Shown in pieces: positions 14,701 to 29,643 of a stretch of DNA of 39,418 nt. Made by a program: the position numbers and the translations under genes. The stretch spans positions 124,001 to 163,418 of the forward strand of contig NZ_MWQY01000012.1 of NCBI RefSeq assembly GCF_002087085.1, in the 5' to 3' direction. Positions within the stretch are counted from its first letter, which is position 1. The number at the start of each line of letters is the position of its first letter. The notes beneath the pieces were generated by a model. The model was not told the origin of the DNA. It saw nothing but the letters and a program-made list of their open reading frames with translations, and ran no database searches.

Positions 14701-15132
14701 CCGAACCCTCTCCGCCGCGGGATTCTCGTTGCTCAGACGCAGAAGGATCAGGTCCGCCAACAGTTCATGGGTCTCCCGGGGACCGTCGGGCTCGGCGGGA
14801 AACTCCCTGTTCACCAGCTCCGTCAGTTCCCGGAGCTGCCGTTCATCTCCGGAATCCGGAAGGATCCTCCGGATACCCTTTTCCGAAAGGGTATCTCCCT
14901 CTCCGGCCTGTTTTCTTAGGATAAGCCGGTAGATTTTCTCCAGCATTCCCAGTCCGTAAAGCTCTCCGGCTCTGAGTATTTTTTCCGGATCGATTTCGTC
15001 TCCCCGGGAGGAGTTTACCAGGTGGCAGATGGAGCGGACGGCGTGAAAACTCGAAAGATCCGGCCGCCCTGCGGAGTCCAGGAGGGGACTCCCCAGTTTA
15101 TAGGTCTTGCGGGATTGCTTGTTGATTATCAT
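11728..15132 (-). CDS. Large alpha-amylase family (GH13) protein
   Basis: LWLIGIWERS, ASDMVPNHTG, WNDTAQLNY, IIRFDAAM (nucleophile Asp), LLAEAFW (acid/base Glu) and FMNNPDE. AGGAG upstream. Confidence 0.9.
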   Translation of the reverse strand: MIINKQSRKTYKLGSPLLDSAGRPDLSSFHAVRSICHLVNSSRGDEIDPEKILRAGELYGLGMLEKIYRLILRKQAGEGDTLSEKGIRRILPDSGDERQLRELTELVNREFPAEPDGPRETHELLADLILLRLSNENPAAERVRELIDDTQLTRNSAYAGLINAADTLFIPPAQAESGESLLQMLRRPLTLHPRSVREQLIYIRENWSDLVSELTIPLLSSLDFLAEEERPWFGGGPGEQHPYSYSEGDFEGFSPDQAWMPMVVMIAKNTLVWLHQLSVKYGRNYTHLDDIPDQELSLLAERGFTALWLIGIWERSGASKRIKHLFGNTQAEASAYSLKAYRISPELGGEKALEALRIKAARFGLRLASDMVPNHTGIDADWIYEHPEYYLQVPVSPYPSYSFSGENLASREGYTTCLEDHYFDHSDAAVVFKHVEDSTGRVRYIYHGNDGTHMPWNDTAQLNYLNPGVREAVVQTILKVAGNFPIIRFDAAMTLARQHIRRLWFPEPGEGGSIPSRAEHALSQADFERAIPEEFWREVVDRVAREVPGTLLLAEAFWMMEGYFVRSLGMHRVYNSAFMNMLKNEENDKYRSTLKNTLEFDREILKRFVNFMNNPDEETALAQYGSGDKYFGICTLLVTMPGLPMFGHGQIEGFSEKYGMEYSRAYKDESPNQELIERHEQEIFPLLKRRALFAESEEFTLFDFIGPSGVNQNVFAYTNRSGDEVALVLYNNSLESAAGSIRTSVPYRDKERDGELHRRSLGEALGVPDNPRRWLIMRQHATDLEFIRNCRDLARRGLDAVLPGYGCQVYLDMRIVADDPDGSYRSIAEKLKGSGCSGIDREIRLMHMKPLHQELARTLRPEIIAVFQEAMFNQKKPETGFLASWAEDYRSFLSTASDKKHPPRNVMPSAARAVLQIATFDLSSRGDIEEELAGFRGYLQRGLEMRPEAPSVFAAWCLTHGLSGAFGETSNPGVSRSLIDDWHLGTPLRDIFSHAGLSWPKADYAVSLVKLLTSYQNWHLSVRDRDGNRYLAELLHEQEIQDFLLVNRYNNILWFNKDRFEDMLWWFFCIAVVQLTEKPGAKAHPRIDSLFNTLHTWLECEERSSFRLTRLIDLLNREEGEEKKMGDSSLKDHP

Positions 15133-18100
15133 GATAACTTGGTACTCCTGGGCTCCGTTTTTCCAGCTCTCGTGCGTTTATTATCAGCATCTGCAGCCTG
15201 TTCTCCACGTTGGCAAGACTGGTATCCGGATCAAAGTCGAGGGAGAGAACCTGAATGTGGGGGAGCTTCTTTTTTACCGATTTGATTATTCCCCGGCCGG
15301 TAATGTGGTTCGGCAGACAGCCGAAGGGCTGGATTATAACGAAGGAGTTGACCCCCCGCATACTCTGATCGATTATGTCAGCCGGAATCAGCCAGCCCTT
15401 CCCCGAGTTGAAGACCGGGTCTACGAGACCGTCGATGTGCACTGCAAGATCATCGTACCTTTCCCTGGTTTCAAAGAAGCGAAAGCTCCGGTTGATCCCT
15501 TCCATAAGGCTGATACCCCAGTCTATCAGATTGTCAGTGGCGATGGATTCCAGGGCTTCGAGAAAAGGAAAGCGCACGTGAAAGCGGCGCATGGACTGCC
15601 GAACCGTGGAGGCGTCCTTCTTGAATACGTCGATCATGGGGGGCATGACTACCTCCATGCCGTTTTTCTCCAGGTACTCCTCGATGTGGGCGTTGGAAAC
15701 GGGGTGGTAGTTGATAAGGATCTCTCCGATGACAAATACCCTGGGCTTCCGCTCCCCCTCCACAAGGGGAATGCGGTTAAAGGCCGTCACAGCCGACCGG
15801 TACTCCTCCAGGGCGGCCCTGGTTCCCCGTTCAAAGCCCTGTTGGACACGTTCCAGCCAGTACCTGTGGGTCCTGTCGGTTTCGCCGGAATTCTGTTCAT
15901 AGGGTCGAAGGCGCCGGGCCATGCCGTCCAGGCTGTCACCGATAAGGATGGCCCAGAGCATGCGGTACTGGAAGCTAATGCCGAGTTTGAGTCCCGGGTG
16001 TATCCCCTTTTTATCCTTTCCGGTGGTTATAATGGGTACCTGCGGGTACCCGGCGTCGTCCAGGGCTTTCCGTGCCACCGTCGCGTACTGGGCCAGTCGA
16101 CAGTCGCATTCGAAATGGGCCAGGCCCAGGGCGAAATCGTCGGGACGACCCGAGGCCTCGATATGGGCCAGGGCTTCTCCGATATTCAACTGGGCGGGAA
16201 AACACATATCGTTGTGGACATATTTTTTTCCCAGTTCCACTGCCCGCTCGCCGGCAAGTTCCATGGGGATGGCTCTGTATCCTTCTCTGCGGAGTACCGC
16301 GGCGGTGAGCCGGGTAAAGGTGGGGGAGAGGTTGGGAACCAGGATCGTTTTTTCGCTCCGATGTCCCCTGGTGTACTTGGCTGGAAAGGGGTCCGGAAGC
16401 TTGTGTGTGGCCGTATTTTTTCCTGTCCGCACCCGTTTTGCCCGGACCGTTTCGACAAAGGATTTGATCCGGATGTTCAGGGGGCCTGGTACATCGCTTT
16501 CGTCCAGTTTCAGCACCAGGGGATCCTTGTTCCCTCCCGCCTTCATGATACGTATGATCTCGTCGGAGATAACCGCGTCATGCCCGCAGCCGAAACTGAC
16601 GATCTGAACCAGTTCCAGGGCGGGATGTTCCGCGGCAATCAGGGCGGCTTCGAACATGCGCACGTGAAAATTGATTGCCGTCTCACCCCGTACCCCCGAA
16701 AGATCCACCTCGTTGAAGCCGGGCAGGCTGTCCACGGTGAGGACGGGGATTCCGTGGCGGGTGAAAAAGCGGGAGAGGTCGTGGTTGACCAGAAAATCGT
16801 TATGGTAGGGTCTTCCCGCCAGTACCACGGCGAAATCCCCTTTTTCTTCGCTGCTGCGGATAATCTCCCTGCCTTCGTTCTGCAGGGTCTGCCTGAACTC
16901 GCCCTGGGCCCTGTCTGCTTCGGCAATGGCCTGCTTGAGCACCTGTCGCGGGATGTTGTAGGTGGAGGCAAAGTAGTCCGCCAGCTGCCTGTCCCGGGAC
17001 CGGAGGTCGTACCAGTGGAAGGCCGGGGTATCCATGGGGATTCCGTGGAGGATGGCCGGTTCGTGGCTCTCCTTGAGGATCAGGGGATAGCCCTGGACCA
17101 CGGAACAGAGGTAGTTGGAGACGGCGCTTTTGTTTTCCGACTCCATCCGCAGCATCATGGGCATGAAGATGCGGTCCACCCCTTTTTCAATCAGGTCCAT
17201 CAGGTGGCCGTGGGCTACCTTGCCGGGAAAACAGGCGGTATCCGAGGGAACATAGCGCAGTCCCGCTTCATAGAGTTTACGGGTGCTCTCCCGGGAAATT
17301 TGCACCTTGAAACCCAGGGAACTGAATAGGCTCCGCCAGAAGGGCATGCTGTGCCAGAACTCCAGAACCCGTGGAAGGCCGATGGTATAATTCTTGGGAG
17401 GGCTGAGCTCCCGGGTTTTGTAATCAGCAAAAAGGAGCTCCCGCCTTCTGCGCATCATGTCTGGAACGGTGTCCAGTTTTTGACTGGCGGCCTTGAGTTT
17501 TTCCCTGACTCCGGGATCTTTTACGTCCCCGATTATCTGTCCCCGTTCGCAGCGGTTTCCGGTTATAAACCTCGATCCGTCAGCAAAGCTGACCAGGGTC
17601 CGGCTGCAGTTATTGGAACAGAAGGGGCAGATGTGCCCCGGTTCCTTGGTAAAGGAGAAGTTGGCAAGGCCCTCCTGTCCGATAAATCTGCTTTTTCCGG
17701 AAAGATTCTGCTTCTTTGTCAGCAGGGCAATACCGATGGCACCCATCTCTCCGGGGAAAGGGGCCCGGGTTATCCGCTTGCCCGAGTACTGCTCAAAGGC
17801 CCGCAGAACCGCGTCGTTCTTGAAGGTCCCGCCCTGAACCACCACCGAGTCTCCCAGGGCGTCCAGGTTTGATACCCGGATGACCTTGGTAAAAACGTTC
17901 TCGATAATCGACTTGCAGAGACCCGCCATAATATCCTCCGGGGTCTTGCCGTTCTTCTGTTCCGTGATTATCGAGGAGTTCATGAATATTGTGCAGCGGG
18001 AGCCGAGTTTGGCAGGGGCGGAGGAGGAAAAGGCCTTTTCCGCGATCTCCTCCACCGGGATCTCCAGGGAGTTGGCATAGGTTTCCACGAAGGAGCCGCA

Positions 18101-19504
18101 GCCGGCGGAACAGGCCTCATTGAGGACGATGCCGGTGACGATTCCGCCGGTGAGGGAGATTGCCTTCATGTCCTGGCCGCCGATGTCGAGAATGAAACTC
18201 GCCTCCGGCTGGTAGTGGAGGGCGGCTTCTGCATGGGCCACGGTTTCCACGGTGTGATAATCCGCCTTGAAGGCGGCGGCGAAGAGCCCTTCTCCGTAGC
18301 CGGTGCTGCCGGCGCCGAGGACCCTGAGCTTGACTCCCTGGGCTTCAAAGTGACGATAGCAGTCAAGCAATCCCTGCTGTACTACCGTCAGGGGATCTCC
18401 GTTATTGCCGGAATAGAAGCGGTAGACCACCTCTTCCTCTTCGTTCAGAAGGACGAACTTCGAGGTTGTGGATCCTGCATCTATACCCAGATATACGGAA
18501 AGCTCCGTTCCCGCGGGATGGGCTGGGCTTCTGAAGGCTGTGAGAGGATATCTCCGGTGGAATTTTTCCTTCTCTTCAGGGGAGGAGAAGAAGGGAACCG
18601 CCTCGAAATCCCGTTTGTCGGCGTATTCTCCCTGGGGACGGGCCAGAGCCTTCATGGCCTCGATCTCCTGGTAGCGGTTTTCATCATCTCCGAACATGAT
18701 TCCCACCGAGAGGGCGGTGCCGTAGGCTACAATCACCTCCGGCCGCTCCGGCAGAATGATCTCGTGCTCCTTGAGTCCGAGACGTTCGGCAAAAACCCGG
18801 ATCAGCACCGGATTAAAGGTCAGGGGACCGCCCTCGAATATAACGGGCGGGACGATCTCCATACCCTGGGCGAGACCGCCGATGGTCTGTTTGGCAATGG
18901 CGTGAAAGGTTGAGAGGGCGATGTCCTCTTTGGATACCCCCTGGTTCAAAAGGGGCTGAATATCGGTCTTGGCAAATACCCCGCAGCGCCCGGAAATGGG
19001 GTAAACCGTCTTTCCCCGTTCGGCGTAACTGTTGAATTCCGTGGAGGTAATCTTTAACAGGGAGGCGACTTCGTCAATAAAGGCTCCGGTACCGCCGGCA
19101 CAGGAGCCGTTCATGCGCATGTCCGAGGCCATCAGCCTGCCGGTGTTCTCGTCGTGGTGGAAAAAAACGACCTTCGCGTCCTGTCCGCCCAGTTCAATGG
19201 CGACCCTGGTCCGGGGAAAGAATTCCCGTATGGCCAGGGAGTTGGCCACCACCTCCTGAATGTAGTGTCCGTTTACGGCCTTGGCGATGATCCGCCCGCC
19301 GGATCCGCAGACGGCCACGTTGAAATCGGCTCCAGGAAAGAGCGCATGGGCTTCTGCCAGCAGTTCCCTGGCGCAGGCAGCCTGCTTGGCCCCGTGACGA
19401 CGGTATACGGCGTGGAGAAGTTCTTTTGTTTCAGGGTCGACAAGGGCAATTTTAAGGGTAGTGGATCCGACATCAAGTCCGGCCCAAATTTGAGAACGGG
19501 ACAT
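15098..19504 (-). CDS. Fused 2-hydroxyacyl-CoA dehydratase activase-like protein (2x BadF/BcrA ATPase + DUF2229 + HGD-D-like); PlsAR/Ger-like
   Basis: GLDVGSTTLK..ELGGQDAK..NGSCAGGTG..SGRCGVF; GIDAGSTTSK..DIGGQDMK..NEACSAGCG..GSRCTIF; CPFCSNNC; SDTACFPGKVAHGH; SFGCGHD; NDMCFPA; QPFGCLPNH. Start ATG 19504 (1468 aa). Confidence 0.9.
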   Translation of the reverse strand: MSRSQIWAGLDVGSTTLKIALVDPETKELLHAVYRRHGAKQAACARELLAEAHALFPGADFNVAVCGSGGRIIAKAVNGHYIQEVVANSLAIREFFPRTRVAIELGGQDAKVVFFHHDENTGRLMASDMRMNGSCAGGTGAFIDEVASLLKITSTEFNSYAERGKTVYPISGRCGVFAKTDIQPLLNQGVSKEDIALSTFHAIAKQTIGGLAQGMEIVPPVIFEGGPLTFNPVLIRVFAERLGLKEHEIILPERPEVIVAYGTALSVGIMFGDDENRYQEIEAMKALARPQGEYADKRDFEAVPFFSSPEEKEKFHRRYPLTAFRSPAHPAGTELSVYLGIDAGSTTSKFVLLNEEEEVVYRFYSGNNGDPLTVVQQGLLDCYRHFEAQGVKLRVLGAGSTGYGEGLFAAAFKADYHTVETVAHAEAALHYQPEASFILDIGGQDMKAISLTGGIVTGIVLNEACSAGCGSFVETYANSLEIPVEEIAEKAFSSSAPAKLGSRCTIFMNSSIITEQKNGKTPEDIMAGLCKSIIENVFTKVIRVSNLDALGDSVVVQGGTFKNDAVLRAFEQYSGKRITRAPFPGEMGAIGIALLTKKQNLSGKSRFIGQEGLANFSFTKEPGHICPFCSNNCSRTLVSFADGSRFITGNRCERGQIIGDVKDPGVREKLKAASQKLDTVPDMMRRRRELLFADYKTRELSPPKNYTIGLPRVLEFWHSMPFWRSLFSSLGFKVQISRESTRKLYEAGLRYVPSDTACFPGKVAHGHLMDLIEKGVDRIFMPMMLRMESENKSAVSNYLCSVVQGYPLILKESHEPAILHGIPMDTPAFHWYDLRSRDRQLADYFASTYNIPRQVLKQAIAEADRAQGEFRQTLQNEGREIIRSSEEKGDFAVVLAGRPYHNDFLVNHDLSRFFTRHGIPVLTVDSLPGFNEVDLSGVRGETAINFHVRMFEAALIAAEHPALELVQIVSFGCGHDAVISDEIIRIMKAGGNKDPLVLKLDESDVPGPLNIRIKSFVETVRAKRVRTGKNTATHKLPDPFPAKYTRGHRSEKTILVPNLSPTFTRLTAAVLRREGYRAIPMELAGERAVELGKKYVHNDMCFPAQLNIGEALAHIEASGRPDDFALGLAHFECDCRLAQYATVARKALDDAGYPQVPIITTGKDKKGIHPGLKLGISFQYRMLWAILIGDSLDGMARRLRPYEQNSGETDRTHRYWLERVQQGFERGTRAALEEYRSAVTAFNRIPLVEGERKPRVFVIGEILINYHPVSNAHIEEYLEKNGMEVVMPPMIDVFKKDASTVRQSMRRFHVRFPFLEALESIATDNLIDWGISLMEGINRSFRFFETRERYDDLAVHIDGLVDPVFNSGKGWLIPADIIDQSMRGVNSFVIIQPFGCLPNHITGRGIIKSVKKKLPHIQVLSLDFDPDTSLANVENRLQMLIINARELEKRSPGVPSYHDNQQAIPQDL

Positions 19505-19618
19505 TGTTTTTCCTCTTGCCTGCCGATGATAGTAATTATTCCGGTTTTTGTCGAGCAGTCGGGTCTGATTCCGCGGTAATGCAGGATTCTCCGGCAACGT
19601 TTTCCGGAATAAAAAGTA

Positions 19619-19637
19619 TGGCAGATTCTATCTGTCA
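19619..19637. promoter_or_regulatory. Imperfect palindrome, putative operator upstream of the activase-like gene
   Basis: TGGCAGAT-TCT-ATCTGTCA (7 of 8 arm positions pair), overlapping a weak minus-strand TAGACT-N16-CATACT promoter. Confidence 0.4.
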
Positions 19638-19683
19638 GTCTATTATGCAGAGGGTCAGACGTGAGAATACTAATGAAAAAATT

Positions 19684-19738
19684 TGTAACATAAATGTAAT
19701 ACAGGCTTCAGATTTGCTTCATAAATATTCCTTAGATT
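19684..19738 (+). promoter_or_regulatory. OmpR-family (CopR-like) direct-repeat sites plus -10 element for the SHOCT gene
   Basis: TGTAA at 19684 and 19695 and GCTTCA at 19705 and 19716, each pair 11 bp apart. TAGATT at 19733-19738 is a -10 candidate with no good -35. Confidence 0.55.
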
Positions 19739-19798
19739 GTACTTGAACACCGGGAGGAAGAATCCCGGATGAAAGATGTGTTCTGGAGGATAGTAAGT

Positions 19799-20329
19799 AT
19801 GAAACGCTACTTTTTTGTTTTTTTTGCCGTGTTTATTCTTGTTTCCGTAGCCGTCTGGGGCGATTCTGATACCCATGATCAGAGCATTGCGGATGTGGAG
19901 TCTGAAATCAGGGACGTCCTGGGACTGACCATGACCGAAAACATAAATCCGGAAAAGGTTCCTGACAACCTGATGCTCGAACTTGGTGACGCTGTAATGG
20001 CCAGTCATGTCGGCAGTGGAGCGCAGCACGAATGGATGGACCGGATGATGGGCGGAGAAGGCTCCGATTCGCTGGACTCTGCACACCGGTGGATGGCTTT
20101 CCAGTATCTTACCGGCGGCTATGGTGCTTCTGGTATGGGGGGTTACGGTATGATGGGAGGCGGCATGATGGGCGGCGGCATAGGCCGCGGCTGGGGCCTG
20201 ATGAGCAATTCGGGGGTAGAGAATTATTCCAACCCCTACAATTCGCCCGAGGACATCCTCAAGCGGCGCTATGCCGCCGGAGAGATTACCCGGGAACAGT
20301 ATCAGCAGATGCTCAAGGATCTGCAATAA
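19799..20329 (+). CDS. Exported Met/His/Gly-rich protein with C-terminal SHOCT domain
   Basis: GGAGGA RBS; signal peptide MKRYFFVFFAVFILVSVAVWG; HEWMDRMMGGEGS; GMMGGGMMGG; SHOCT PEDILKRRYAAGEITREQYQQMLKDL. Confidence 0.85.
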   Translation: MKRYFFVFFAVFILVSVAVWGDSDTHDQSIADVESEIRDVLGLTMTENINPEKVPDNLMLELGDAVMASHVGSGAQHEWMDRMMGGEGSDSLDSAHRWMAFQYLTGGYGASGMGGYGMMGGGMMGGGIGRGWGLMSNSGVENYSNPYNSPEDILKRRYAAGEITREQYQQMLKDLQ

Positions 20330-20339
20330 TGCCCCTCCT

Positions 20340-20382
20340 GCCGGGGGTAACGCGCATCAGCCACGTAACCCCCGGCTTTTTT
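20340..20382 (+). terminator. Rho-independent terminator after the SHOCT gene
   Basis: GCCGGGGGT...ACCCCCGGC stem followed by TTTTTT. Confidence 0.7.
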
Positions 20383-20401
20383 CATTACCGGAGCACCCTG
20401 T

Positions 20402-21022
20402 ATGAAATCCGATCAGGAACGTATACAACGCCGATATGACCGCATAGCGCCCCTGTACGATCTGCTTGAGCGCCCCATGGAAGCCAGTTTTGTGGCATGG
20501 AGAGTGCAGCTTCTGACCAAGGCTGCCGGCCGTGTTCTGGAAGTCGGCGTCGGCACCGGCAAGAATCTTCCCTATTATCCGCCCGATGTATCGGTAACGG
20601 GAATCGATTTCAGCCGCGAAATGATTGAACGAGCCCGGTCCCGGGTGGAGAGTCAGGGTCTGGATAACGTGACCCTCATTGAAATGAACGCGGAAGAGCT
20701 TTCCTTTGAGGATAACAGCTTTGACACAATAGTCAGTACCTGTGTTTTCTGCTCGGTGCCGCTACCGGTAAACGGGCTGCGGGAGTTGCAGAGAGTCTGC
20801 AGGCCCGACGGGAGAGTCCTCATGCTCGAGCATGTCAGGAGTGAGGGACCTGTTATGGGTCCCCTTATGGATTTCCTGAACCCCCTTCCCCTCTATCTGT
20901 ATGGAGCCAACATAAACCGCCGGACTGTGGATAATCTGCTGCAGGCCGGTTTTCAGCACATAGAGGTAACAAACCTGTGGCGCGATATCGTCAAACAGAT
21001 AATTGCCCGTCCGGGCGCATGA
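20402..21022 (+). CDS. Class I SAM-dependent methyltransferase
   Basis: RYDRIAPLYD, VLEVGVGTGKNL, GIDFSREM, FEDNSFDTIV, CVFCSVP and LMLEHVRS. Confidence 0.92.
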   Translation: MKSDQERIQRRYDRIAPLYDLLERPMEASFVAWRVQLLTKAAGRVLEVGVGTGKNLPYYPPDVSVTGIDFSREMIERARSRVESQGLDNVTLIEMNAEELSFEDNSFDTIVSTCVFCSVPLPVNGLRELQRVCRPDGRVLMLEHVRSEGPVMGPLMDFLNPLPLYLYGANINRRTVDNLLQAGFQHIEVTNLWRDIVKQIIARPGA

Positions 21023-21059
21023 GTTCTTCGTACCCCGGTGCGGAAGGATATACGATACT

Positions 21060-22985
21060 ATGAATGACAACCTACTGAAGCAACCACAACGTTATGTTCT
21101 TGCAGGTACCGACATTGCAGGCGGGCCTTCCGTGGCCGGCATTCTTGTTTCCGGCGTTTCCGGACCTGAAGGCTTCTCGAAGGAAAAAAAGTTTACATCG
21201 ACTACATCCGGTGCAGAAGAAGAGAAGTATAGCATTGAGACGGAAATTGCCCTGCTTGGGGATGAAGTTCGTTCCATGGCGGAAATACTGAACCGGGAAG
21301 GTTTCGAGTCGGAGTCGAAAATACTCGATACGCATGTTCTGATGCTTGAGGACGAAGGAATAAAGTCCAGACTCATGCACCGAATTGAGGAGTACGGAGA
21401 GTCTGCAGAGGAAGCGGTGGTCTGTGTATTCGGAGAAATGAAAGATCGCCTGCTGGAATCGGATAATGCCCTGATACGTGAACGATCCGCTGATGTTGAG
21501 GATCTGATGCAGCGTCTTAAGTCTCGATTATCCGGAATTGAGCAAATCCGGGAATTGCCCGTCCCGGTAAGAAACGCCTCCCTGGTGCTTGTTTTTCCAG
21601 AACTCTTTGTATCGAATGTTGTGGAGGCTCGAAACGCCGGTGTTGCGGCGATTATCGTTGAGTCCGGAACAGGATTTTCCCACGCTGCCATCATGGCGAA
21701 AGCATTCGGGATACCCGTACTTAGAGTCAATGGTATTGAAAAGCTGTATGAAGCGATGGGCGCAATAGTCGTGGTGGATGTGGAAAACGGTCGACTGGTG
21801 ATACATGCCGACGAAGACGACATTTCGTCAGCTGCACTGGCATCCGCAACTGCGACGGATGAAGCATATATCGACTCGCCCCTGAATATATGGCTCAATC
21901 TTGTTGATACGGATTCACATCCCCCGGAATCGTTACATGGCGATACTATAGCGGGAATCGGGCTCTTTCGGAGTGAGTCTCTGCTTACCGAGCGATTGTC
22001 AGGATTCCCCAGCGAAGAAGAACAGTACGCAGTCTATCTACAGCTCTGCAGACGGTGGAAGCGTTATCCCGTTACTATCCGCATGTTTGATATCGGTGGC
22101 GACAAGACCGTACCGTATTTTTCACTGGGACCACAGGATAATCCTTTTCTGGGACTGCGGGCCCACCGACTGTATCGCTTTCATCCGGAGCTTTTCATGA
22201 ATCAGGTCCGGGCAATTCTTCGAGCCGGTATTGAGTGTTCTGATCTTCGTATTCTTTTCCCGATGATAGAAACAGTTGAGGAGCTCAAATATCTGCAGGA
22301 ACTGCTGGCGTCTGCGATGGAAGAAATGAAGCAACAGGGAACGGCGTATCGTCATGACGTTAAACAGGGAGTATTGATTGAAGTTCCTTCCGCTGTATGG
22401 ATTCTGAAAGATCTACTGGAACGGCTGGATTTCATCAGCGTCGGTACCAATGATCTGTTGCAGTACCATTTTGCAGTTGATCGCGGTAATATTAATGTGA
22501 GTAATTACTACCAACCCGAGCATCCGTCAGCTCTTCGGATGCTGAAATATATTGCTGACGCTGCATCGGAATCCGGGAAGCAGATTACTCTCTGTGGAGA
22601 GATTGCAGCGGATCCGTATCTTGTTCCTGTACTTTACGGTATGGGGTTCAGGGATCTCAGTGTCGACTTCCATGCCGTTAATTCTGTCCGGCTTTCCGTG
22701 CCTGAAGGTTCAAGCGACGGGTTGGAGAATATTGCCGCCCGTTGTGTGTCCGCATCCTCAATCGAGGAGGTACACGCGATCTTGGACGAATCGGGAGGTT
22801 CTGATCGCTTGAAGCCTCTCGACCACAGTAATCGGGGGACAGGATTCATTGATCCTGTTTGTGGAATGGTAGTCCACAGGCAGGAAAATCTATACTCGTT
22901 TACTACGGACAGGGAGACGTACTTTTTTTGTTCGCCGGAATGTTTAGAGCAGTTTTCCCGTAAACCTGAAAGGTATATACGCTAA
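21060..22985 (+). CDS. ptsP: PEP-protein phosphotransferase (PTS Enzyme I, PtsI-like) fused to a C-terminal YHS domain
   Basis: IRERSADVED; phospho-His motif GTGFSHAAIMAKAFGIP; GIGLFRSE, IRMFDIGGDK, NPFLGLRA, IEVPSA, SVGTNDLLQY..AVDR and LCGEIA; C-terminus DPVCGM..YFFCSPECLEQF..PERY. ATG 21060 (641 aa). Confidence 0.92.
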   Translation: MNDNLLKQPQRYVLAGTDIAGGPSVAGILVSGVSGPEGFSKEKKFTSTTSGAEEEKYSIETEIALLGDEVRSMAEILNREGFESESKILDTHVLMLEDEGIKSRLMHRIEEYGESAEEAVVCVFGEMKDRLLESDNALIRERSADVEDLMQRLKSRLSGIEQIRELPVPVRNASLVLVFPELFVSNVVEARNAGVAAIIVESGTGFSHAAIMAKAFGIPVLRVNGIEKLYEAMGAIVVVDVENGRLVIHADEDDISSAALASATATDEAYIDSPLNIWLNLVDTDSHPPESLHGDTIAGIGLFRSESLLTERLSGFPSEEEQYAVYLQLCRRWKRYPVTIRMFDIGGDKTVPYFSLGPQDNPFLGLRAHRLYRFHPELFMNQVRAILRAGIECSDLRILFPMIETVEELKYLQELLASAMEEMKQQGTAYRHDVKQGVLIEVPSAVWILKDLLERLDFISVGTNDLLQYHFAVDRGNINVSNYYQPEHPSALRMLKYIADAASESGKQITLCGEIAADPYLVPVLYGMGFRDLSVDFHAVNSVRLSVPEGSSDGLENIAARCVSASSIEEVHAILDESGGSDRLKPLDHSNRGTGFIDPVCGMVVHRQENLYSFTTDRETYFFCSPECLEQFSRKPERYIR

Positions 22986-23054
22986 TTCATGCAAGAAATC
23001 GACCTTGAGGATTTGCTTTCTCCGGATGAACGATGACGAGTTGTTCCGGACTCA

Positions 23055-24176
23055 TCAGGAATCTGAATCTATGGGAAGGGTTAAGGTAAAGGTGCTGCCG
23101 AAGCCGGGCCCCCGGCTGTCTGCGGTAATAGTGCCGCCGTGGGCGCGGGCCAGGTGGATCGCGATGGTCAATCCGATTCCGCTGCCTCCGTGGGCCCGGG
23201 CCCGGGAAGAATCGACCCGGTAGAAGCGGTCGAAGAGATGCGGCAGATGTTCCGGCGCAATTCCTATGCCGGTATCCTGGATTGAGAACCGGAGATGAGA
23301 GTTGAGGAGGCTGCATTTGAGCCGTACAACTCCACCCTGGTTTGTGTATTGCAGCGCGTTGCCGAGCAGGTTGATCAGGATCTGCAGTACCCGTTCACTG
23401 TCCATCCTGATATGTGGCAGGTTGTGGGATACTTCCACGACAAGCTGCACGCCTTTGTCTTCAAACTGGGATTCCAGCCGGGATACGGTACGACGTATGA
23501 GCTCCGCCGGATTGGTCTGCTCGAGATCTAGCTGAATAATCCCCGCTTCCGCCTTCGAGAGCTGGCTCAGTTCCTCGGTCAGGCGCTGCAGCCGGGATGT
23601 TTCTCGCTGGACATCGAGGAAGGTTTCGGTATCCGGAGAAAGCACCCCGTCGATAAGCCCCTCCATCATGCTGCGGATTCCCGTCAGGGGTGTCTTGAGC
23701 TCATGGGCGAGGTTCCCGATCAGCTCCGTACGTCGGCGCTCGGTTCCTTCCAGGATTTCCGCCATCTGGTTAAAACTCAGGGCCAGTTCGCCCAGCTCGT
23801 CATTCCATTTGGTCTGTATCCTGTCGCTGTAATTGCCGTCCGCTATGCGTTTGCTTGCTTCCATCAGGGACCGGATGGGGCTGACGATCCTCCAGGCAAT
23901 GAAACTGCTTGCCAGTACCGCGGCAACAGAGGCTACAACCCCGGAAATGAGAAGAATCTCATTGCTTGCCGCCAGAAAATTTCTGCGCAGGTCCTCCGCC
24001 ATTGCATTATCCGGTCCCAGAAGGATCCGCATGTGTTCCATGTGGTGCAGAAACGCGTTGGGCGCCTGAATCCGGGATGTAACTACCAGAACCAGGCTGC
24101 CGACAACAACGATCAGAATGTGCGAAAGGAAGAGCTTCCAGCCCAGCAGGTGAGGTACGGGTTTCCTGATTTTCAT
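23055..24176 (-). CDS. HAMP sensor histidine kinase (BaeS/CopS-like)
   Basis: 2 TM with a short FLHHMEHM loop, HAMP (DELGELALSFNQMA), H-box AHELKTPL, N-box QILINLLGNALQY, DTGIGI and GGSGIGL. Confidence 0.95.
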   Translation of the reverse strand: MKIRKPVPHLLGWKLFLSHILIVVVGSLVLVVTSRIQAPNAFLHHMEHMRILLGPDNAMAEDLRRNFLAASNEILLISGVVASVAAVLASSFIAWRIVSPIRSLMEASKRIADGNYSDRIQTKWNDELGELALSFNQMAEILEGTERRRTELIGNLAHELKTPLTGIRSMMEGLIDGVLSPDTETFLDVQRETSRLQRLTEELSQLSKAEAGIIQLDLEQTNPAELIRRTVSRLESQFEDKGVQLVVEVSHNLPHIRMDSERVLQILINLLGNALQYTNQGGVVRLKCSLLNSHLRFSIQDTGIGIAPEHLPHLFDRFYRVDSSRARAHGGSGIGLTIAIHLARAHGGTITADSRGPGFGSTFTLTLPIDSDS

Positions 24177-24883
24177 GCGTTTGCCGCCTCAAAACGGTAT
24201 CCGGCGCTGCGCACCGTCACGACAATGCCGGCGGAGGCCGGATTATCCTCTATTTTCTGCCGCAGGCGCCGGATGTGAACATCCACAACACGCTCATCGA
24301 TGTAATAGTCGTCCTTCCACACATGCTCGATGAGCTGGTCCCGGCTGAGCACTCTGTCGTGGTTGGTTGCCAGGACATGCAGCAGATCGAATTCGATCGG
24401 TGTCAGCTGCAGCAGCCGGTCGTCCTTCCATACTTTTCGCCCCGCCGGATCGATGGTAATCCGGGAGAACCGGATTGACCGGTCCCCCTCGCTGGTCGAA
24501 TGCCGTTCACGGCGCTGGAGTACCGTTACCCGGGCTGCCACTTCCCGTGGACTGAAGGGTTTGACAACATAATCATCGGCACCCATCCGCAGTCCGAGGA
24601 GCCGGTCCGTTTCGTCTCCCCGGGCGCTCAGCATCAGAACCATGACGGAAGATTCCTGCCGTATGCGGCGGAGCACCTCTATGCCGTCGATCCCGGGGAG
24701 CATGACATCCAGAATTATTACCGAGGGCGTGAACCTGCGCATTGCAGGAAGAACCTCGTTGCCGTGGGAAACTTCCTCTACCTCATACCCCTCGTTTTCC
24801 AGGTACGCCCGCAGGGATTTCCTGATTGCCGACTCGTCGTCGACAACCAGTACCCGCTTTTCCGTCTTCATAGCGTTACTCAT
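24173..24883 (-). CDS. OmpR-family response regulator (CopR-like)
   Basis: VLVVDDE, LDVMLPGIDG, GADDYVVKPF, LTPIEFDLL, VVDVHIRRLRQK and TVRSAGY. 4-bp overlap with the kinase; alternative start at 24871. Confidence 0.95.
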   Translation of the reverse strand: MSNAMKTEKRVLVVDDESAIRKSLRAYLENEGYEVEEVSHGNEVLPAMRRFTPSVIILDVMLPGIDGIEVLRRIRQESSVMVLMLSARGDETDRLLGLRMGADDYVVKPFSPREVAARVTVLQRRERHSTSEGDRSIRFSRITIDPAGRKVWKDDRLLQLTPIEFDLLHVLATNHDRVLSRDQLIEHVWKDDYYIDERVVDVHIRRLRQKIEDNPASAGIVVTVRSAGYRFEAANA

Positions 24884-24933
24884 CCCCGCTCAGGAGAAAT
24901 TGACTCCGTCTACCGGCCGCCGGGTGCGAAACT

Positions 24934-26955
24934 TCACGCGGTGGCCTCCTCCAGCTCCTCTTTTTTGACCCGCAGGAGCCGGGCGTTGATAGCGACGATA
25001 ACCGTGGAGAGGGACATGAGGATCGCGCCGACTTCGGGAGAGAGCACGATGCCTGCGTTGTAGAGAACACCTGCTGCCAGAGGAATAGCCACGACGTTGT
25101 ACCCGGTTGCCCAGATCAGGTTCTGCACCATTTTTTGATAGGTTGCTCTACCGAAAAGGATCAGGGCGGTAATGTCCAAGGGATTGGAATTGACAAGAAT
25201 AATGTCCGCCGTGGAAGCCGCGACATCCGTTCCCGAGCCGACCGCAATACCCACTTGGGCCTGTGCCAACGCTGGTGAGTCGTTAACGCCGTCGCCGGTC
25301 ATGGCGACGTATTCTCCCTTTTTCTGCAGTTCCTTTATCTTCTCCTGTTTCTGGTCCGGCAGAACCTCCGCAAAGAAGCCGTCCATTCCCAGTTCCTCTG
25401 CAACTGCCTTCGCTGTAGCAGTGTTATCTCCAGTAAGCATCCAGCACTTTATGCCCCGTTTCTGCAGGGCCTGCACCGCTTTGTAGGATTCGGGACGGAT
25501 GGTATCGGAAAGGGCCAGAGATCCCGCAATGGTGTTGTCCACAAGAACGAACACCCTGGTAACCCCCCCTTTGGCTTCCGCACCTTCCGGAATCGCAAGA
25601 TTCTGCTCCTTCAGGTATCCGGGGCTGACTACCTCTATCTGCTTTCCGGAAACGATACCGGAGACCCCTTTTCCCTTGATGGCTTCGAAATTATCCGCCG
25701 ACTCAGGCTTGATCCCCATGGTCGTGGCTTTCTGAACAATTCCCTTGCCGATAGGGTGCTCGGAATGCCCTTCCAGGCTGGCGGCGAAGGAGACAATCTG
25801 CTCTTCGGTGTAACTGTCGCTGTGAACGTTGACGGCGGTTACTTCGAAGGTCCCGTTGGTCAGGGTTCCGGTTTTGTCGAATACCAGGGTGCTTATTCTG
25901 CGGGCGTTTTCGAAGGCTGTCCGGTTGCGTATCAGAAGACCATTCTGGGCAGATTTCGAGGTGGAAACGGAGACAACAAGAGGAATCGCCAGGCCGAGGG
26001 CATGGGGGCAGGTAATGATCATGACCGTGGCCATGCGTGCGATTGAGAACTGCAAATCCATTCCGGCGATAAGCCAGGCGGCAAGGGTAACGGCCCCCAC
26101 GCTTATGGCGACAATGGTAAGCCAGAAGGCCGCCCGGTCGGAGAGGGCCTGGGTTTTGGATTTTGCTGCCTGGGCCTCGCGTACCATGTTGATGACCTTG
26201 GAAAGGTACGAATCCTCGCCGGCGCCTTCGACCCGAAGCTCCAGAGATCCGTCGCCGTTGATCGAACCGCCGATCAGGGTGTCGCCGGTCTGCTTTTTGA
26301 CGGGCCTGGATTCCCCGGTCAGCATCGATTCGTCGATGTAGCTTTCGCCCCTGACGACCTCGCCGTCGGAGGGAATCTTTTCTCCTGGTTTGATCAGCAG
26401 CACGTCCCCTTTTTGGATTTCTGATAAAGGAACGTCTTCCGTTTCGTCGCCTTTTTTACGGTGAGCTTCGCTCGGCATGAGCTGTGCCAGTTTTTCCAGG
26501 GAGGACGAGGCGCTCAGGACCGATGCCATCTCGATCCAGTGTCCCGCCAGCATGATTGCTATCAGGGTTGCAAGTTCCCAGTAAAAAGGCGACCCTTGCA
26601 GGCCGAAGGTCACCGCCGCGCTGTAGACGTAGGCGACTGAAATAGCCAACCCGATAAGAGTCATCATGCCGGGATTTTTCGCCTTTAATTCGCTGATCAG
26701 ACCTGAGAGGAATGGACGTCCTCCATAGAAGAAGATAACCGTTGCCAGTGTGAAAACTACGTAGTCCGACCCTGCGAACCCGAAGGAAAATCCCAGCAGC
26801 TGTTGAATAAGTTTCGAAAGGGCCAGGATCGGGACGGTAAGAACAAGGGTAACATAGAAGCGCCTCCTGAAGTCCCGTATCATCATGCGGTGGTGTTCGT
26901 TGTGGTCGTGATGACTCTGGTGTTCATGATGTTCGTGATGGTCGGTTGTGGCCAT
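24934..26955 (-). CDS. copB: Copper-translocating P1B-3 type ATPase
   Basis: His-rich N-terminus DHHEHHEHQSHHDHNEHH, TGES, CPHALGLA, DKTGT, SEHP, GDGVND, YN and MSLST. GGAGG RBS. Confidence 0.95.
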   Translation of the reverse strand: MATTDHHEHHEHQSHHDHNEHHRMMIRDFRRRFYVTLVLTVPILALSKLIQQLLGFSFGFAGSDYVVFTLATVIFFYGGRPFLSGLISELKAKNPGMMTLIGLAISVAYVYSAAVTFGLQGSPFYWELATLIAIMLAGHWIEMASVLSASSSLEKLAQLMPSEAHRKKGDETEDVPLSEIQKGDVLLIKPGEKIPSDGEVVRGESYIDESMLTGESRPVKKQTGDTLIGGSINGDGSLELRVEGAGEDSYLSKVINMVREAQAAKSKTQALSDRAAFWLTIVAISVGAVTLAAWLIAGMDLQFSIARMATVMIITCPHALGLAIPLVVSVSTSKSAQNGLLIRNRTAFENARRISTLVFDKTGTLTNGTFEVTAVNVHSDSYTEEQIVSFAASLEGHSEHPIGKGIVQKATTMGIKPESADNFEAIKGKGVSGIVSGKQIEVVSPGYLKEQNLAIPEGAEAKGGVTRVFVLVDNTIAGSLALSDTIRPESYKAVQALQKRGIKCWMLTGDNTATAKAVAEELGMDGFFAEVLPDQKQEKIKELQKKGEYVAMTGDGVNDSPALAQAQVGIAVGSGTDVAASTADIILVNSNPLDITALILFGRATYQKMVQNLIWATGYNVVAIPLAAGVLYNAGIVLSPEVGAILMSLSTVIVAINARLLRVKKEELEEATA

Positions 26956-27151
26956 AAAAATCCTCCGTGTTTTGCGCAGCGGGAATCCCCGGAACGGTTA
27001 CATATAAACGCATATCCGACGGAAAAGAACAGACCTGCAAGAATGAGCCGCATGCTCTGCCCGGCAGAGACTCCGCTTCAAAGGTAAAAATCTCTGGCGT
27101 AAAGATCTAACGAATCCGTTACGTCGATGATTTTATGATCATTCTTATAAG

Positions 27152-27180
27152 AATATACTATACCCCCCCGGGGTATTCAA
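27152..27180 (-). promoter_or_regulatory. Sigma-70 promoter for copB with a CsoR-type operator in the spacer
   Basis: Minus strand reads TTGAAT-N17-TATATT; plus strand 27160-27176 is ATACCCCCCCGGGGTAT (ATAC-C tract/G tract-GTAT). Confidence 0.8.
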
Positions 27181-27327
27181 GAAAAATCATTATCCACCAT
27201 AATATGGTAATACGCGCTCTTGACGTGTATATTTTTTCCCCCCATGATTTACATGAAGGCAAGATTAGATTCAAAACTGGCACCGGGAGGGCTTTTCCTG
27301 CATGTCGGTTCCTGTCGGGGGGATAAT

Positions 27328-27612
27328 ATGAGCGATTCGCAGAAGAAAACCAAACTGATGGAAGTCTCAGTCTGCATAGGAACGAATTGTGCGTTCCGCG
27401 GTGCATCGCAGCTCATGGAAGCCCTTGTTGCAGATAAAGAAATCCGTGAAAAATGTACCATTCATGAGATTTCGTGCCAGAACGATATGTGTGATCATTC
27501 CCGCAGATCTCCGGTGGTTCGGATAGATGGTGACTATTTTCTGGAGGCACGCCCGGAAGTAATCCTCGACGAAGTCCATCGGCGTATCGCGATGAAAAAG
27601 ATTAAGGCCTGA
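27328..27612 (+). CDS. Thioredoxin-like [2Fe-2S] ferredoxin (NuoE/HfsA-like small protein)
   Basis: VSVCIGTNCAFRGA...SCQNDMC...SPVVRIDG; ATG 27328 after GGGGGA; 3 nt before the hydrogenase gene. Confidence 0.85.
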   Translation: MSDSQKKTKLMEVSVCIGTNCAFRGASQLMEALVADKEIREKCTIHEISCQNDMCDHSRRSPVVRIDGDYFLEARPEVILDEVHRRIAMKKIKA

Positions 27613-27615
27613 AGC

Positions 27616-29151
27616 ATGAAAGAGATTGGTGTAAAGCGTGTTTTCGAGCGAATGCGGGGGATCTATACACCCGTTACGGATTTACGCCGTCGCCTGCTTA
27701 TGGAAATCGCCGGATTTGTTCTGGAAGGGAAAGAACCTGCTGCAATCGAAGAAATCCCTTTCAAAGTTATCGAAATGGGTAAACCGACCTATCGCTGCTG
27801 CTCCTACCGGGAGCTGTCTATAATCCGGCAGCGAATACGGCTGGCATTCGGGTTGGCGCTGATTGAAGAGCGGGATAACATCCCAGTTTCGCGGGGAATC
27901 GAAAAAGCCTTCACCGATAGGAAAGTGATCGATGCCCCGTTGGTGCATGTTATTCGTGCCGCTTGTGAAAAATGTCCTGAAGACGTGGTTCTTGTTACCG
28001 ATAAATGCCAGGCCTGCATGGCCCATCCCTGTTCCATTGTCTGCCCCCGGAACGCCATCTCGTTCCCGGAAAGTAAGGCCGTTATCGATCAGGAAAAGTG
28101 CATTAAATGTATGAAATGTGTTCAGGTCTGCCCCTATGCGGCAATCACGAGGATGGTGCGTCCCTGCGCCGAAGCCTGCGGTGTGGATGCGATTGATTCC
28201 GACGACGAAGGTTTTGCCCGGATAAATCATGCAACCTGCGTCAGCTGCGGGTTGTGCATTGTCTCCTGTCCTTTTGCCGCAATAGCGGAAAAATCGGAGA
28301 TTGTTCAGGTGGTTATCAGTCTGCTCCGTAAAAGCAGTCAAAGTAAATTGTATGCCATTGTTGCGCCTTCTTTTCCTGGACAGTTCGGAAGCAAGGTTTC
28401 TCCCGAGATGATTTTCGCAGGGATCAGCAAGCTTGGATTCGACAAGATTATGGAAGTCGCCTACGGTGCGGATTGCGACACGATTCTGCTTGCAGACAGG
28501 TACCGAAAAAAGCAGAGCGGGTTTCTGGGGACCTCTTGCTGCCCTTCGTGGGTCAAGGCGGCACGGGCATATTATCCGGACCTGGCGGAGAATATTGCAG
28601 ACAGTTACACCCCAATGGTGGAAACTGCAAAAAAGATCAAGGAACGGGATGCGGATGCAAAGGTTATTTTTATCGGACCCTGTATCGCCAAAAAAGATGA
28701 AGCCATGAGCGAAGAAGTTGCCGGATACGTTGATCATGTCCTGACCTTCGAGGAACTGGCGGCTTTGTTTGTGACTTTCAGTATCGATTTGCTTTCCCTT
28801 GCGAGGGAGATGCCCGTGGATGATGCCAGTGTCCTGGGCCGGGGATATGCGAATGCAGGAGGTGTCGGCGAAGCTATTATCCGTACAGCTGAAAAAAGCC
28901 ATGGGATAACCGATATTCAGTTTGAACGAGCCGATACCCTGCAGGAATGCAGGGCGATGCTGGAAAGAATCAAGCGCGGAGAGAGAAGCCCGGACCTCAT
29001 AGAGGGAATGGCGTGTCCCGGCGGATGTGTCGGCGGTCCGGGGACGCTGTCATCTCTAAAGCAGGCGGCGCGGCAGGTTACCAGGTTTGCCGAATCCGCA
29101 TCCTTTCATTTTCCCCTTTGTGATGAGGAACCTTCAGTCGGTAATCCGTAA
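27616..29151 (+). CDS. Monomeric [FeFe]-hydrogenase, group B-like, with N-terminal 4Fe-4S domains
   Basis: H-cluster motifs TSCCPSW, GPCIAKKDE and EGMACPGGCVGGPG; RCCSYRE; CQACMAHPCSIVCP, CIKCMKCVQVCP and CVSCGLCIVSCP. Confidence 0.92.
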   Translation: MKEIGVKRVFERMRGIYTPVTDLRRRLLMEIAGFVLEGKEPAAIEEIPFKVIEMGKPTYRCCSYRELSIIRQRIRLAFGLALIEERDNIPVSRGIEKAFTDRKVIDAPLVHVIRAACEKCPEDVVLVTDKCQACMAHPCSIVCPRNAISFPESKAVIDQEKCIKCMKCVQVCPYAAITRMVRPCAEACGVDAIDSDDEGFARINHATCVSCGLCIVSCPFAAIAEKSEIVQVVISLLRKSSQSKLYAIVAPSFPGQFGSKVSPEMIFAGISKLGFDKIMEVAYGADCDTILLADRYRKKQSGFLGTSCCPSWVKAARAYYPDLAENIADSYTPMVETAKKIKERDADAKVIFIGPCIAKKDEAMSEEVAGYVDHVLTFEELAALFVTFSIDLLSLAREMPVDDASVLGRGYANAGGVGEAIIRTAEKSHGITDIQFERADTLQECRAMLERIKRGERSPDLIEGMACPGGCVGGPGTLSSLKQAARQVTRFAESASFHFPLCDEEPSVGNP

Positions 29152-29199
29152 TCCGTCCAGGAAGAGAATTCCAGTATACTATTCGGAGGGAAACCTTGC

Positions 29200-29643
29200 A
29201 TGCCGGGCAGCGAAGATGAGATTATAAACCAGATTGTTTCGGACCTGAACTCCCTGGCCCGCCTGGCTGCTCTGGAGAATGCCTGGGAGACCCGCGGAAT
29301 CGCTGCCATGATGGCGGAGCTGTATCGGTACCGCAGAAGAAGCGAGGGCGAGCCGGTGGAACTGTCGGCGGAATTGCGGGCGGTGGAGCTGTGTCTGAGG
29401 CTGGTCAAGCCCCGGTATGGTGTCGACTGTTCCTGGGACTTCCTTACCTCGGGGGTCGAATCAATCCTGGTTCCCCGGGGAGAACTTCTGCGTCATGTGG
29501 AGGAACAGGTCGCCTGCCGTACAGGCAGAGAAGAGGGTTTCTGGATCCGGATAGAAGCGATTCCGGAGGAAAAGAGCTGCTCAATTCTTGTCAGTGACGG
29601 CCCCGGTCCGGGAGAGCCGGTCCAAATGAGCTACCCCCTGTGA
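29200..29643 (+). CDS. Short degenerate LytS/YesM-type histidine-kinase-like protein (no H-box His, no TM)
   Basis: LNSLARLAALE..AELYRY..VELSAEL..CLRLVKPRYG aligns by eye with the kinase core of the next gene. GGAGG RBS. Confidence 0.7.
   Translation: MPGSEDEIINQIVSDLNSLARLAALENAWETRGIAAMMAELYRYRRRSEGEPVELSAELRAVELCLRLVKPRYGVDCSWDFLTSGVESILVPRGELLRHVEEQVACRTGREEGFWIRIEAIPEEKSCSILVSDGPGPGEPVQMSYPL

Follow-up and report, generated by a model that had tools for sequence, protein, structure and literature searches.

A 39,418-nt stretch of DNA (NCBI RefSeq assembly GCF_002087085.1, contig NZ_MWQY01000012.1, positions 124,001 to 163,418 of the forward strand), which at its full length is called the window here, carries a gene in which Enzyme I (EI) of the phosphotransferase system (PTS) is continued in frame by a C-terminal YHS/TRASH domain. 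Judged by its sequence, the product of this gene, designated EI-YHS, is intact and belongs to a lineage of its own among the EIs. The gene keeps company with copper-homeostasis genes rather than with ptsH, and it arrived in the source genome of the window (G000) on a 9.7-kb copper island. By a modest balance of probability, we lean towards the view that EI-YHS serves as an accessory EI in which the YHS domain provides a metal input, most likely copper; by analogy with other sensory forms of the enzyme, it would feed copper stress into PTS regulation.

The open reading frame (ORF) of EI-YHS is unbroken to position 22985 on the + strand and could begin at TTG 21003 or ATG 21060. The likelier start codon is ATG 21060, since GGAAGGA lies 11 nt upstream of it, a gap of 37 nt is left after the stop codon of the preceding methyltransferase gene, and the resulting N-terminus fits the homologues. 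Translation from this codon gives a product of 641 aa. Domains were called with the Pfam gathering cut-offs, and the features of the gene are as follows.

21060..22985, + strand: EI-YHS gene, PTS Enzyme I paralogue with a C-terminal YHS/TRASH domain (ORF, Pfam, TIGR01417 and AlphaFold2 (AF2) model)
21201..21485, + strand, residues 48-142: PEP-utilisers_N (PF05524), the HPr-binding alpha-helical subdomain of the N-terminal half of EI (EIN); 42.3 bits, cut-off 24.4
Residues 176-244, + strand: PEP-utilizers (PF00391); 36.5 bits, cut-off 23.1
21681..21683, + strand: codon of the phospho-acceptor His208 (SHAAI), aligned with the active-site His of Escherichia coli EI; His in 71/73 fused EIs
21927..22700, + strand, residues 290-547: PEP-utilizers_C (PF02896), the TIM barrel of the C-terminal half of EI (EIC) that binds phosphoenolpyruvate (PEP); 268.5 bits, cut-off 22.8
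22800..22847, + strand, about residues 581-596: flexible connector, with a predicted local distance difference test score (pLDDT) <50 at residues 584-594; fixed in length, unconserved in sequence
22848..22979, + strand, residues 597-640: YHS (PF04945), the domain feature running to 22982; 36.8 bits, cut-off 30.3

The first-pass annotation, made from the letters alone, had read this ORF as an EI fused to a YHS domain. The domain search bears this out: all domains scored above their Pfam cut-offs in one ORF, the catalytic residues are intact, and every motif that had been listed (SHAAI, GLFRSE, RMFDIGGDK, LGLRA, IEVP, GTND, DR, CGE and DPVCGM...YFFCSPEC...F..PERY) is in the translation. The three EI domains together make up the three-domain architecture of PTS Enzyme I. 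The NCBIfam model TIGR01417 (PTS_I_fam) was passed narrowly, with 360.8 bits against a cut-off of 341.7 over profile positions 26-565, and the PtsP model NF008283 was failed, with 317.5 against a cut-off of 583 over profile positions 196-729 only; the Pfam search of EI-YHS gave no match to a GAF domain. The AF2 model, with 51 family members as input, reached a pLDDT of 85.4 and a predicted template modelling score (pTM) of 0.75. In this model the EI body is confident, residues 584-594 are disordered, and the terminal module (600-640) is well folded with a pLDDT of 81-95.

The continuity of the gene was checked against sequence from other runs. A 4,548-nt contig from a second public run covers 20300-23100 at about 96% identity with 118 substitutions, and the EI-YHS gene is unbroken in it; its sole indel, at 20376, is intergenic and lies outside the gene. 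The contig of another sequencing run bridges 22729-22890, which is the EIC/YHS junction. No stop codon or frameshift before the YHS domain, the flaw for which a check had been proposed, was found in the independent contig spanning the gene. These results confirmed that the fusion is a real, intact gene.

Alignment with E. coli EI (PDB 2hwg; E = 2e-69) placed His208, Cys512, Arg304, Arg341, Glu441, Asp465 and Arg475 of EI-YHS on catalytic positions. The catalytic residues are kept in 71-73 of the 73 fused EIs in the alignment, those of EIC in 72-73. In the numbering of the E. coli enzyme, they are H189, C502, R296, R332, E431, D455 and R465, respectively. Mean identity of the HPr-binding subdomain was 0.35 within the fused EIs and 0.30 within the ordinary ones, and the constraint on it is therefore comparable in both; between the two groups, its identity was 0.24. 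Taken by its residues, the EI part of EI-YHS looks catalytically competent. It thus has the same three-domain body as canonical PtsI, with all catalytic residues and a confidently predicted fold, but it is only about 30-34% identical to it, falls in a separate clade, adds a tethered YHS domain, scores just above the family cut-off, and, as described below, is an extra copy without the linkage to ptsH that is typical, though not obligatory, for the family.

The candidate metal site of the YHS domain consists of D598-x2-C601-x22-C624-x3-C628, together with M603, and all four ligands are present in 73/73 fused EIs. This set satisfies the YHS/TRASH ligand pattern (D/C)-x2-C-x19-22-C-x3-C as given in PMC4626032. 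Met follows the first Cys in 68 of 104 sequences, as it does in the YHS domains of neighbouring Cu-ATPases, and the motif DPVCGM is common to EI-YHS and those domains. The last Cys is replaced by His in three fusion loci; His being a metal ligand as well, the replacement would fit a metal site. The spacing from CGE...D to DPxC is 74-87 aa in 104/104 sequences and 76-80 aa in 98 of them, and the mean identity over the roughly 16 connector residues is 0.11 in the fused family. A search of the 4.2-Mb source genome revealed no YHS match other than that of EI-YHS (41.8 bits).

Modelled in isolation by AF2, the YHS domain gave a pLDDT of 88.4. Foldseek placed the hydroxylase YHS domain of toluene/o-xylene monooxygenase (ToMO) and eL24 closest to it, with TM-scores of 0.55-0.68 and about 2 A over 43 columns, none of them at E<=0.001. 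The profile of the isolated domain, searched against PDB sequences, found eL24, zf-MYM5 and a phenol-hydroxylase alpha-subunit tail at E values of 0.004-0.009. A predicted complex between the EI core (1-583) and the YHS domain (595-641) scored 0.04 against a mark of 0.32, which speaks neither for nor against docking.

The closest functional precedent is a class IIIc adenylyl cyclase of Mycobacterium phlei, which is a dimer with a C-terminal YHS domain. According to PMC4626032, 1-10 uM Cu2+ stimulated this cyclase sixfold with Mn2+, copper turned the inactive enzyme into an active one with Mg2+, and the catalytic domain alone showed no copper stimulation. The ligands proposed there for its YHS domain are D178, C181, C204 and C208, and D598, C601, C624 and C628 of EI-YHS have the identical spacing. 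Both proteins share a C-terminal YHS domain with the pattern D-x2-C-x22-C-x3-C on a dimer-dependent signalling enzyme. They differ in the catalytic domain and in the linker, which is 8-11 residues in the cyclase, whereas about 16 unconserved residues follow the EIC tail here; copper dependence is shown for the cyclase and predicted for EI-YHS. Copper P-type ATPases with an N-terminal YHS domain have the motif DPVCGM...YxFCS..C in common with EI-YHS, but there the domain sits on the transporter itself.

The fusion is not confined to the window, and the refuting condition named in the first-pass annotation, that it be a singleton, did not hold. Among the 120 best homologues in a set of 5.8 billion clustered proteins, 116 have C-x17-24-C-x3-C within the last 75 residues, whereas the C-terminus of the remaining ones (P0062, P0064, P0096, P0116) is unrelated and looks like the product of a truncation or a frameshift. 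The best homologue identity to EI-YHS is only 46-49%, and the source labels include an 'Alkalispirochaeta sp.' metagenome-assembled genome (MAG) and a 'Deltaproteobacteria bacterium' MAG. When the last 200 residues were searched exhaustively against 1.84 billion representatives, 38 proteins were found at E<=1e-30. In 36 of the best 150 representatives (50% identity clusters) the match spans the end of EIC and the YHS ligands; below those 36, the matches end at about residue 136 of the 200-residue query, as expected of an ordinary EI. Metagenomes were searched with a DNA pattern combining the EI motif 'CGE...D' and the YHS motif 'DPxCxMV' at the observed spacing. This search yielded 39 loci, and in 39/39 of them EI is joined to a YHS-type tail; five were established by tblastn, all as fusions, two being cut by the contig end and three having the Cys-to-His variant. 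A scan of genome contigs with generic EI motifs found a YHS tail in 0/80 ordinary EI loci.

In a tree of the EI core (FastTree, reference residues 10-580, YHS domain excluded), a single branch with a local support of 100 divides the 73 fused EIs from 71 ordinary EIs, among them the three other EIs of G000. This is consistent with a single origin of the fusion. An orthologue of EI-YHS was found in none of 40 relatives, 5 of them of the same genus, where the best matches reach 27-35% identity and stop near residue 575. The fusion occurs in 1/400 other genomes of the window's own phylum (G278), in 2/401 of the phylum of a Desulfobacteraceae MAG (G746 and G459; a third match comprises the EIC part only), in 0/301 of the phylum of an Anaerolineae MAG, and in 1/301 of the phylum of a Planctomycetota MAG (G1427), that is, in 4/1,403 sampled genomes and in three of four phyla. 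The architecture is already in the sequence databases, where some entries are named 'PTS system EI component/YHS domain-containing protein'. No paper combining YHS or TRASH with PTS or Enzyme I was found in the literature searched, subscription journals and InterPro lying outside the scope of that search. New relative to the known forms of Enzyme I are the C-terminal domain, a putative input module of a metal type, and the genomic association.

Next, the neighbourhoods of fusion loci were compared with those of ordinary EI loci. The window, the 39 metagenome loci and 4 loci of other genomes were collapsed at >90% identity into 30 fusion groups, and 80 ordinary-EI loci from genome contigs, a collection other than that of the fusion set, served as controls in a length-filtered tblastn comparison. 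The fusion loci were shorter in a 26-group comparison, with a median of 9.6 kb against 21.3 kb for the controls. The counts of fusion groups and of ordinary-EI loci with each neighbour were as follows.

HPr: 0/30 fusion groups, 48/80 ordinary-EI loci
P-type ATPase core: 10/30, 1/80
PEMT/ICMT: 11/30, 0/80
SHOCT: 10/30, 0/80
Extra YHS domain: 9/30, 0/80
Methyltransf_11: 9/30, 2/80
Spermine-synthase-like protein of about 800 aa: 7/30, 0/80
DUF5676: 6/30, 0/80
Multicopper oxidase: 4/30, 0/80
CsoR: 4/30, 1/80
Any of ATPase, oxidase, YHS and CsoR: 15/30, 2/80

The 245 neighbouring ORFs within 6 kb of fusion genes were also annotated with Pfam. Recurrent neighbours were copper-type P-type ATPases, multicopper oxidases, CsoR, HMA proteins and stand-alone YHS proteins, and further YHS-pyridine-nucleotide disulfide oxidoreductases, PEMT/ICMT, Methyltransf_11, SHOCT, DUF5676, the spermine-synthase-like protein of about 800 aa, rhodanese and P-II; HPr and EII were found at none of these 245 ORFs. 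Where a group spans 6 kb or more (22 groups), a core metal gene is present in 15 and one or more of the recurrent neighbours in 19. All eight neighbour ATPases that were inspected are copper types, five with CPH and a His-rich N-terminus and three with CPC and a YHS, HMA or HMBD domain; the P1B-1 and P1B-3 ATPases are described as copper pumps in PMC5552934. ATPases bearing a YHS domain adjoin the fusion gene at L101, L117 and L129. Gene order varies among the fusion loci, and the copper link is therefore not that of one island copied. A co-directional methyltransferase gene lies <200 nt upstream of EI-YHS in 6 of the 18 groups whose upstream sequence is long enough, and a DUF5676 gene is close downstream in 3 groups.

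At five loci (L094, L097, L104, L113 and L118) a string of genes was observed that encodes a PEMT/ICMT membrane methyltransferase, EI-YHS, a DUF5676 protein with 2 transmembrane segments and the spermine-synthase-like protein of about 800 aa (e.g. L097:3900-9398). Gaps of about 3-25 nt between the methyltransferase and EI-YHS genes in that string suggest an operon. Disulfide oxidoreductases resembling thioredoxin reductase with an N-terminal YHS domain, another enzyme-YHS fusion, are encoded at L094:530-1591, L099:5432-6505 and L104:4948-5991. In G746 and G459, a protein with the architecture DUF1858-DUF438-hemerythrin-PAS_10 adjoins EI-YHS (L133:2700-4439 and L134:12627-14204) and is a possible O2, NO or metal sensor.

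In the source genome, the copper genes and EI-YHS share one insertion. In two genomes of the same genus, G004 (82-87% identity) and G002 (77-82%), window position ~19568 joins ~29229 within ~100 bp, so that about 9.7 kb is specific to the source genome. GC content is 0.48-0.51 at 21-23 kb and 0.56-0.59 in the left flank. Neither flanking direct repeats nor a tRNA or integrase gene was found at the island boundaries, and promoter-like and terminator-like sites were at chance level. The features of the island are listed below.

19569..29228, no strand assigned: genome-specific insertion of about 9.7 kb including EI-YHS (comparison with G004 and G002; GC content)
19769..20329, + strand: SHOCT-domain protein (PF09851), 32.9 bits, with an N-terminal hydrophobic segment and a Gly/Met-rich stretch (GGYGMMGGGMMGGG-like)
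20402..21022, + strand: class I S-adenosylmethionine methyltransferase (Methyltransf_11), Pfam 82.2 bits, ending 37 nt upstream of EI-YHS
23055..24176, - strand: sensor histidine kinase (HAMP, HisKA, HATPase_c by Pfam), convergent to EI-YHS
24173..24883, - strand: OmpR-family response regulator (Response_reg, Trans_reg_C by Pfam)
24934..26955, - strand: copper P-type ATPase, CopB-like (TIGR01511, 618.2 against 397), with a CPH motif and an N-terminus rich in His (10 among residues 1-90)
27220..29151, + strand: Cys-rich ORF of 130 aa with no Pfam match, then a 511-aa Fe-only-hydrogenase-like protein (Fe_hyd_lg_C and 4Fe-4S), at the right end of the island

The co-directional methyltransferase gene is probably co-transcribed with EI-YHS. 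As had been remarked from the sequence, there is no HPr or EII gene in the window: Pfam found no PTS family in its other long ORFs, and all matches to HPr and PTS_EIIA_2 in the genome lie on other contigs. The island histidine kinase scored below the cut-off of the heavy-metal sensor kinases (TIGR01386; 180.7 against 292.55). Only about 45 residues separate its two predicted membrane segments, and HHMEHM in this outer loop is a possible periplasmic metal-binding motif. A direct repeat, TGTAAC-N5-TGTAAT, lies at 19684-19700, about 70 nt upstream of the SHOCT gene, with the 11-bp period typical of OmpR-family sites. It is the sole match in the window, though the pattern was picked after it had been sighted and any estimate of chance is biased accordingly, and no similar box was found upstream of the island ATPase operon. 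Abutting the island, a 1,499-aa ORF (15098-19597, - strand) contains two acyl-CoA dehydratase activase (BcrAD/BadFG-like) modules; it matches TIGR00241 with 265 bits in two stretches and is conserved in the same-genus genomes. In genome G001, an ATPase homologue (72% DNA identity) follows directly after the activase gene.

Other EI genes were sought in the genomes that carry the fusion. Four EIs of G000 score above the TIGR01417 cut-off, EI-YHS included. One, of 634.6 bits, is on contig C1, a second EI adjoins an HPr gene and an EIIA gene on contig C65, and a third lies in a 766-aa ORF on contig C16, which may be its PtsP. HPr is matched 3-4 times and PTS_EIIA_2 10 times in this genome. G278, G746 and G459 each combine a canonical EI, scoring 615-634 bits, with one HPr, whose gene adjoins the canonical EI gene in G746 and G459. 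In the genomes tested (n=4), then, EI-YHS is always an extra EI copy and a canonical ptsI and HPr are kept, so the separate housekeeping ptsI for which a check had been suggested is present in all four. In the three of these four carriers that have a single HPr, EI-YHS would have either to share it with the canonical EI or to use another acceptor.

The mechanism proposed for an accessory EI with a metal input is as follows. Metal, probably copper, would bind Asp598, Cys601, Cys624 and Cys628 and change the activity of EI. EI autophosphorylation occurs in the dimer form, as stated in PMC5537066, and the YHS domain would be held by a flexible tether of fixed length from the dimerisation domain; the likely route is an effect on the EIC dimer or on the domain motions needed for autophosphorylation. 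EI-YHS would then alter the phosphorylation state of the HPr/NPr pool, or of another acceptor, and copper stress might in this manner enter PTS-based regulation, much like the nitrogen input through the GAF domain of EI-Ntr. The latter, also called PtsP, may be likened to EI-YHS as an EI paralogue with a small appended sensory-type domain. Its GAF domain senses nitrogen status, and it belongs to a regulatory branch and not to sugar uptake. EI-YHS differs from it in that the extra domain is C-terminal, after the dimerisation domain, and is YHS rather than GAF, and in that the PtsP family cut-off is missed.

An extended form of this proposal is possible but somewhat doubtful. Beside PtsI and GAF-bearing PtsP, EI-YHS may form a sensory class of its own, the third of Enzyme I, namely a copper-switched PEP:protein phosphotransferase of a mobile, conserved copper-stress gene set, in which the Asp/Cys3 site would control the dimer, set the phosphorylation of HPr or of a cluster-encoded acceptor, and reprogram carbon and ion regulation. 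The gene set proposed comprises CopA/CopB ATPases, a multicopper oxidase, small YHS proteins, PEMT/ICMT and class I methyltransferases, SHOCT and DUF5676. As for the copper-linked EI put forward by the first-pass annotation, the metal link has gained support from the recurrence of copper clusters and from the match of the Asp/Cys3 site to the YHS domain of a copper-activated cyclase, and the copper gating of activity itself is a prediction from sequence.

Several points weigh against a copper input. The neighbour queries came from fusion loci, and the fusion set was therefore favoured in the comparison. By tblastn, 11/30 groups have no recurrent neighbour at all; 8 of these span <6 kb, and in one of the 11 (L096/L105/L106) YHS, SHOCT and DUF5676 are present by Pfam. 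The clade with the Cys-to-His replacement has no recognisable metal neighbour in 20 kb (the locus L109 = L135 = G1427:C36, and also L115 and L130). The sequence of this sub-clade reads ...YYFCSRIHMLRF..., and the neighbours in G1427 are genes for HEAT-repeat and dynamin-like GTPase proteins and unknowns. The metagenome sample represents the C-x-M-V subset only (40/104 sequences), and the EI tree is a FastTree one with local support only. In the island, the histidine kinase and the response regulator are both below the heavy-metal family cut-offs, and an operator common to both island promoters was sought with 0 matches of >=12/14. Finally, as described in PMC4626032, YHS/TRASH relatives bind structural Zn or Cd, or nothing, the YHS domain of toluene-4-monooxygenase being metal-free, and copper binding by the YHS domains of Cu-ATPases had no experimental proof.

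It is unlikely, though it has to be weighed most seriously among the alternatives, that the YHS domain is a zinc ribbon with a structural role, or a module for protein docking; it would tether a constitutively active EI to some other product of the metal cluster, for instance a Cu-ATPase, a metallochaperone or a small YHS protein, and would localise phosphotransfer, not gate it. In sequence and in fold the domain comes closest to modules with a structural or interaction role (eL24, zf-MYM, the tail of the hydroxylase alpha subunit), one homologue (P0112) also matches zf-FCS (PF06467), other YHS proteins neighbour the fusion in the nine groups counted above, and the metal-free domain of toluene-4-monooxygenase (PMC4626032) points the same way. 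Against this, the first ligand of the EI-YHS domain is Asp and not Cys, the Met after the first Cys is that of the Cu-ATPase domains in most sequences (68/104), and the only enzyme-fused YHS domain for which an experimental study was found (PMC4626032) is regulatory. In addition, G000 has no other YHS protein with which EI-YHS could pair.

More improbable still is a second alternative, in which EI-YHS would pass the phosphate of PEP to a non-HPr acceptor of the metal clusters or serve a metal-detoxification pathway with the adjacent methyltransferases. The absence of adjacent HPr genes (0/30 against 48/80), the identity of only 0.24 between the HPr-binding subdomains of fused and ordinary EIs, the co-directional methyltransferase gene <200 nt upstream in 6/18 groups and the DUF5676 gene close downstream in 3 would all accord with such a role. 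The HPr-binding subdomain is nevertheless retained and conserved, and HPr is present in 4/4 tested carriers. No neighbour family reaches half of the groups, and there is therefore no constant candidate acceptor.

We hold it to be very improbable that EI-YHS is an ordinary redundant EI paralogue with an incidental tail and that the copper genes merely hitch-hike with it on mobile islands. This would agree with the position of EI-YHS on an insertion, with the sparseness of the family (4/1,403 genomes) and with the clade that lacks metal neighbours, but the ligands are invariant in 73/73 at about 35-55% sequence identity, the connector is fixed in length, the contrast with the 80 controls is strong, and gene orders differ among the loci. 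That two genes were joined by a sequencing error, as an artefact of assembly or annotation, is refuted by the recurrence of the same in-frame fusion (116/120 homologues, 39 metagenome loci and 4 other genomes) and by the independent contig without an indel in the gene.

In summary, EI-YHS appears, on the slight preponderance of probability given above, to be an accessory EI through which a metal, most likely copper, acts on the PTS. The PTS is the textbook coupling of metabolic state to regulation, and its entry enzyme is known in housekeeping and nitrogen-sensing forms. If the proposal is true, a metal-sensing Enzyme I would add copper stress as a new input of the phosphorelay and would offer a second enzyme context for testing whether the poorly understood YHS domain senses copper, as proposed. 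Uncharacterised genes that recur in the copper clusters also emerge from the comparison; they encode PEMT/ICMT-like and class I methyltransferases, SHOCT and DUF5676 proteins, the spermine-synthase-like membrane protein of about 800 aa and YHS-fused disulfide reductases, and EI-YHS would provide a handle on their function.

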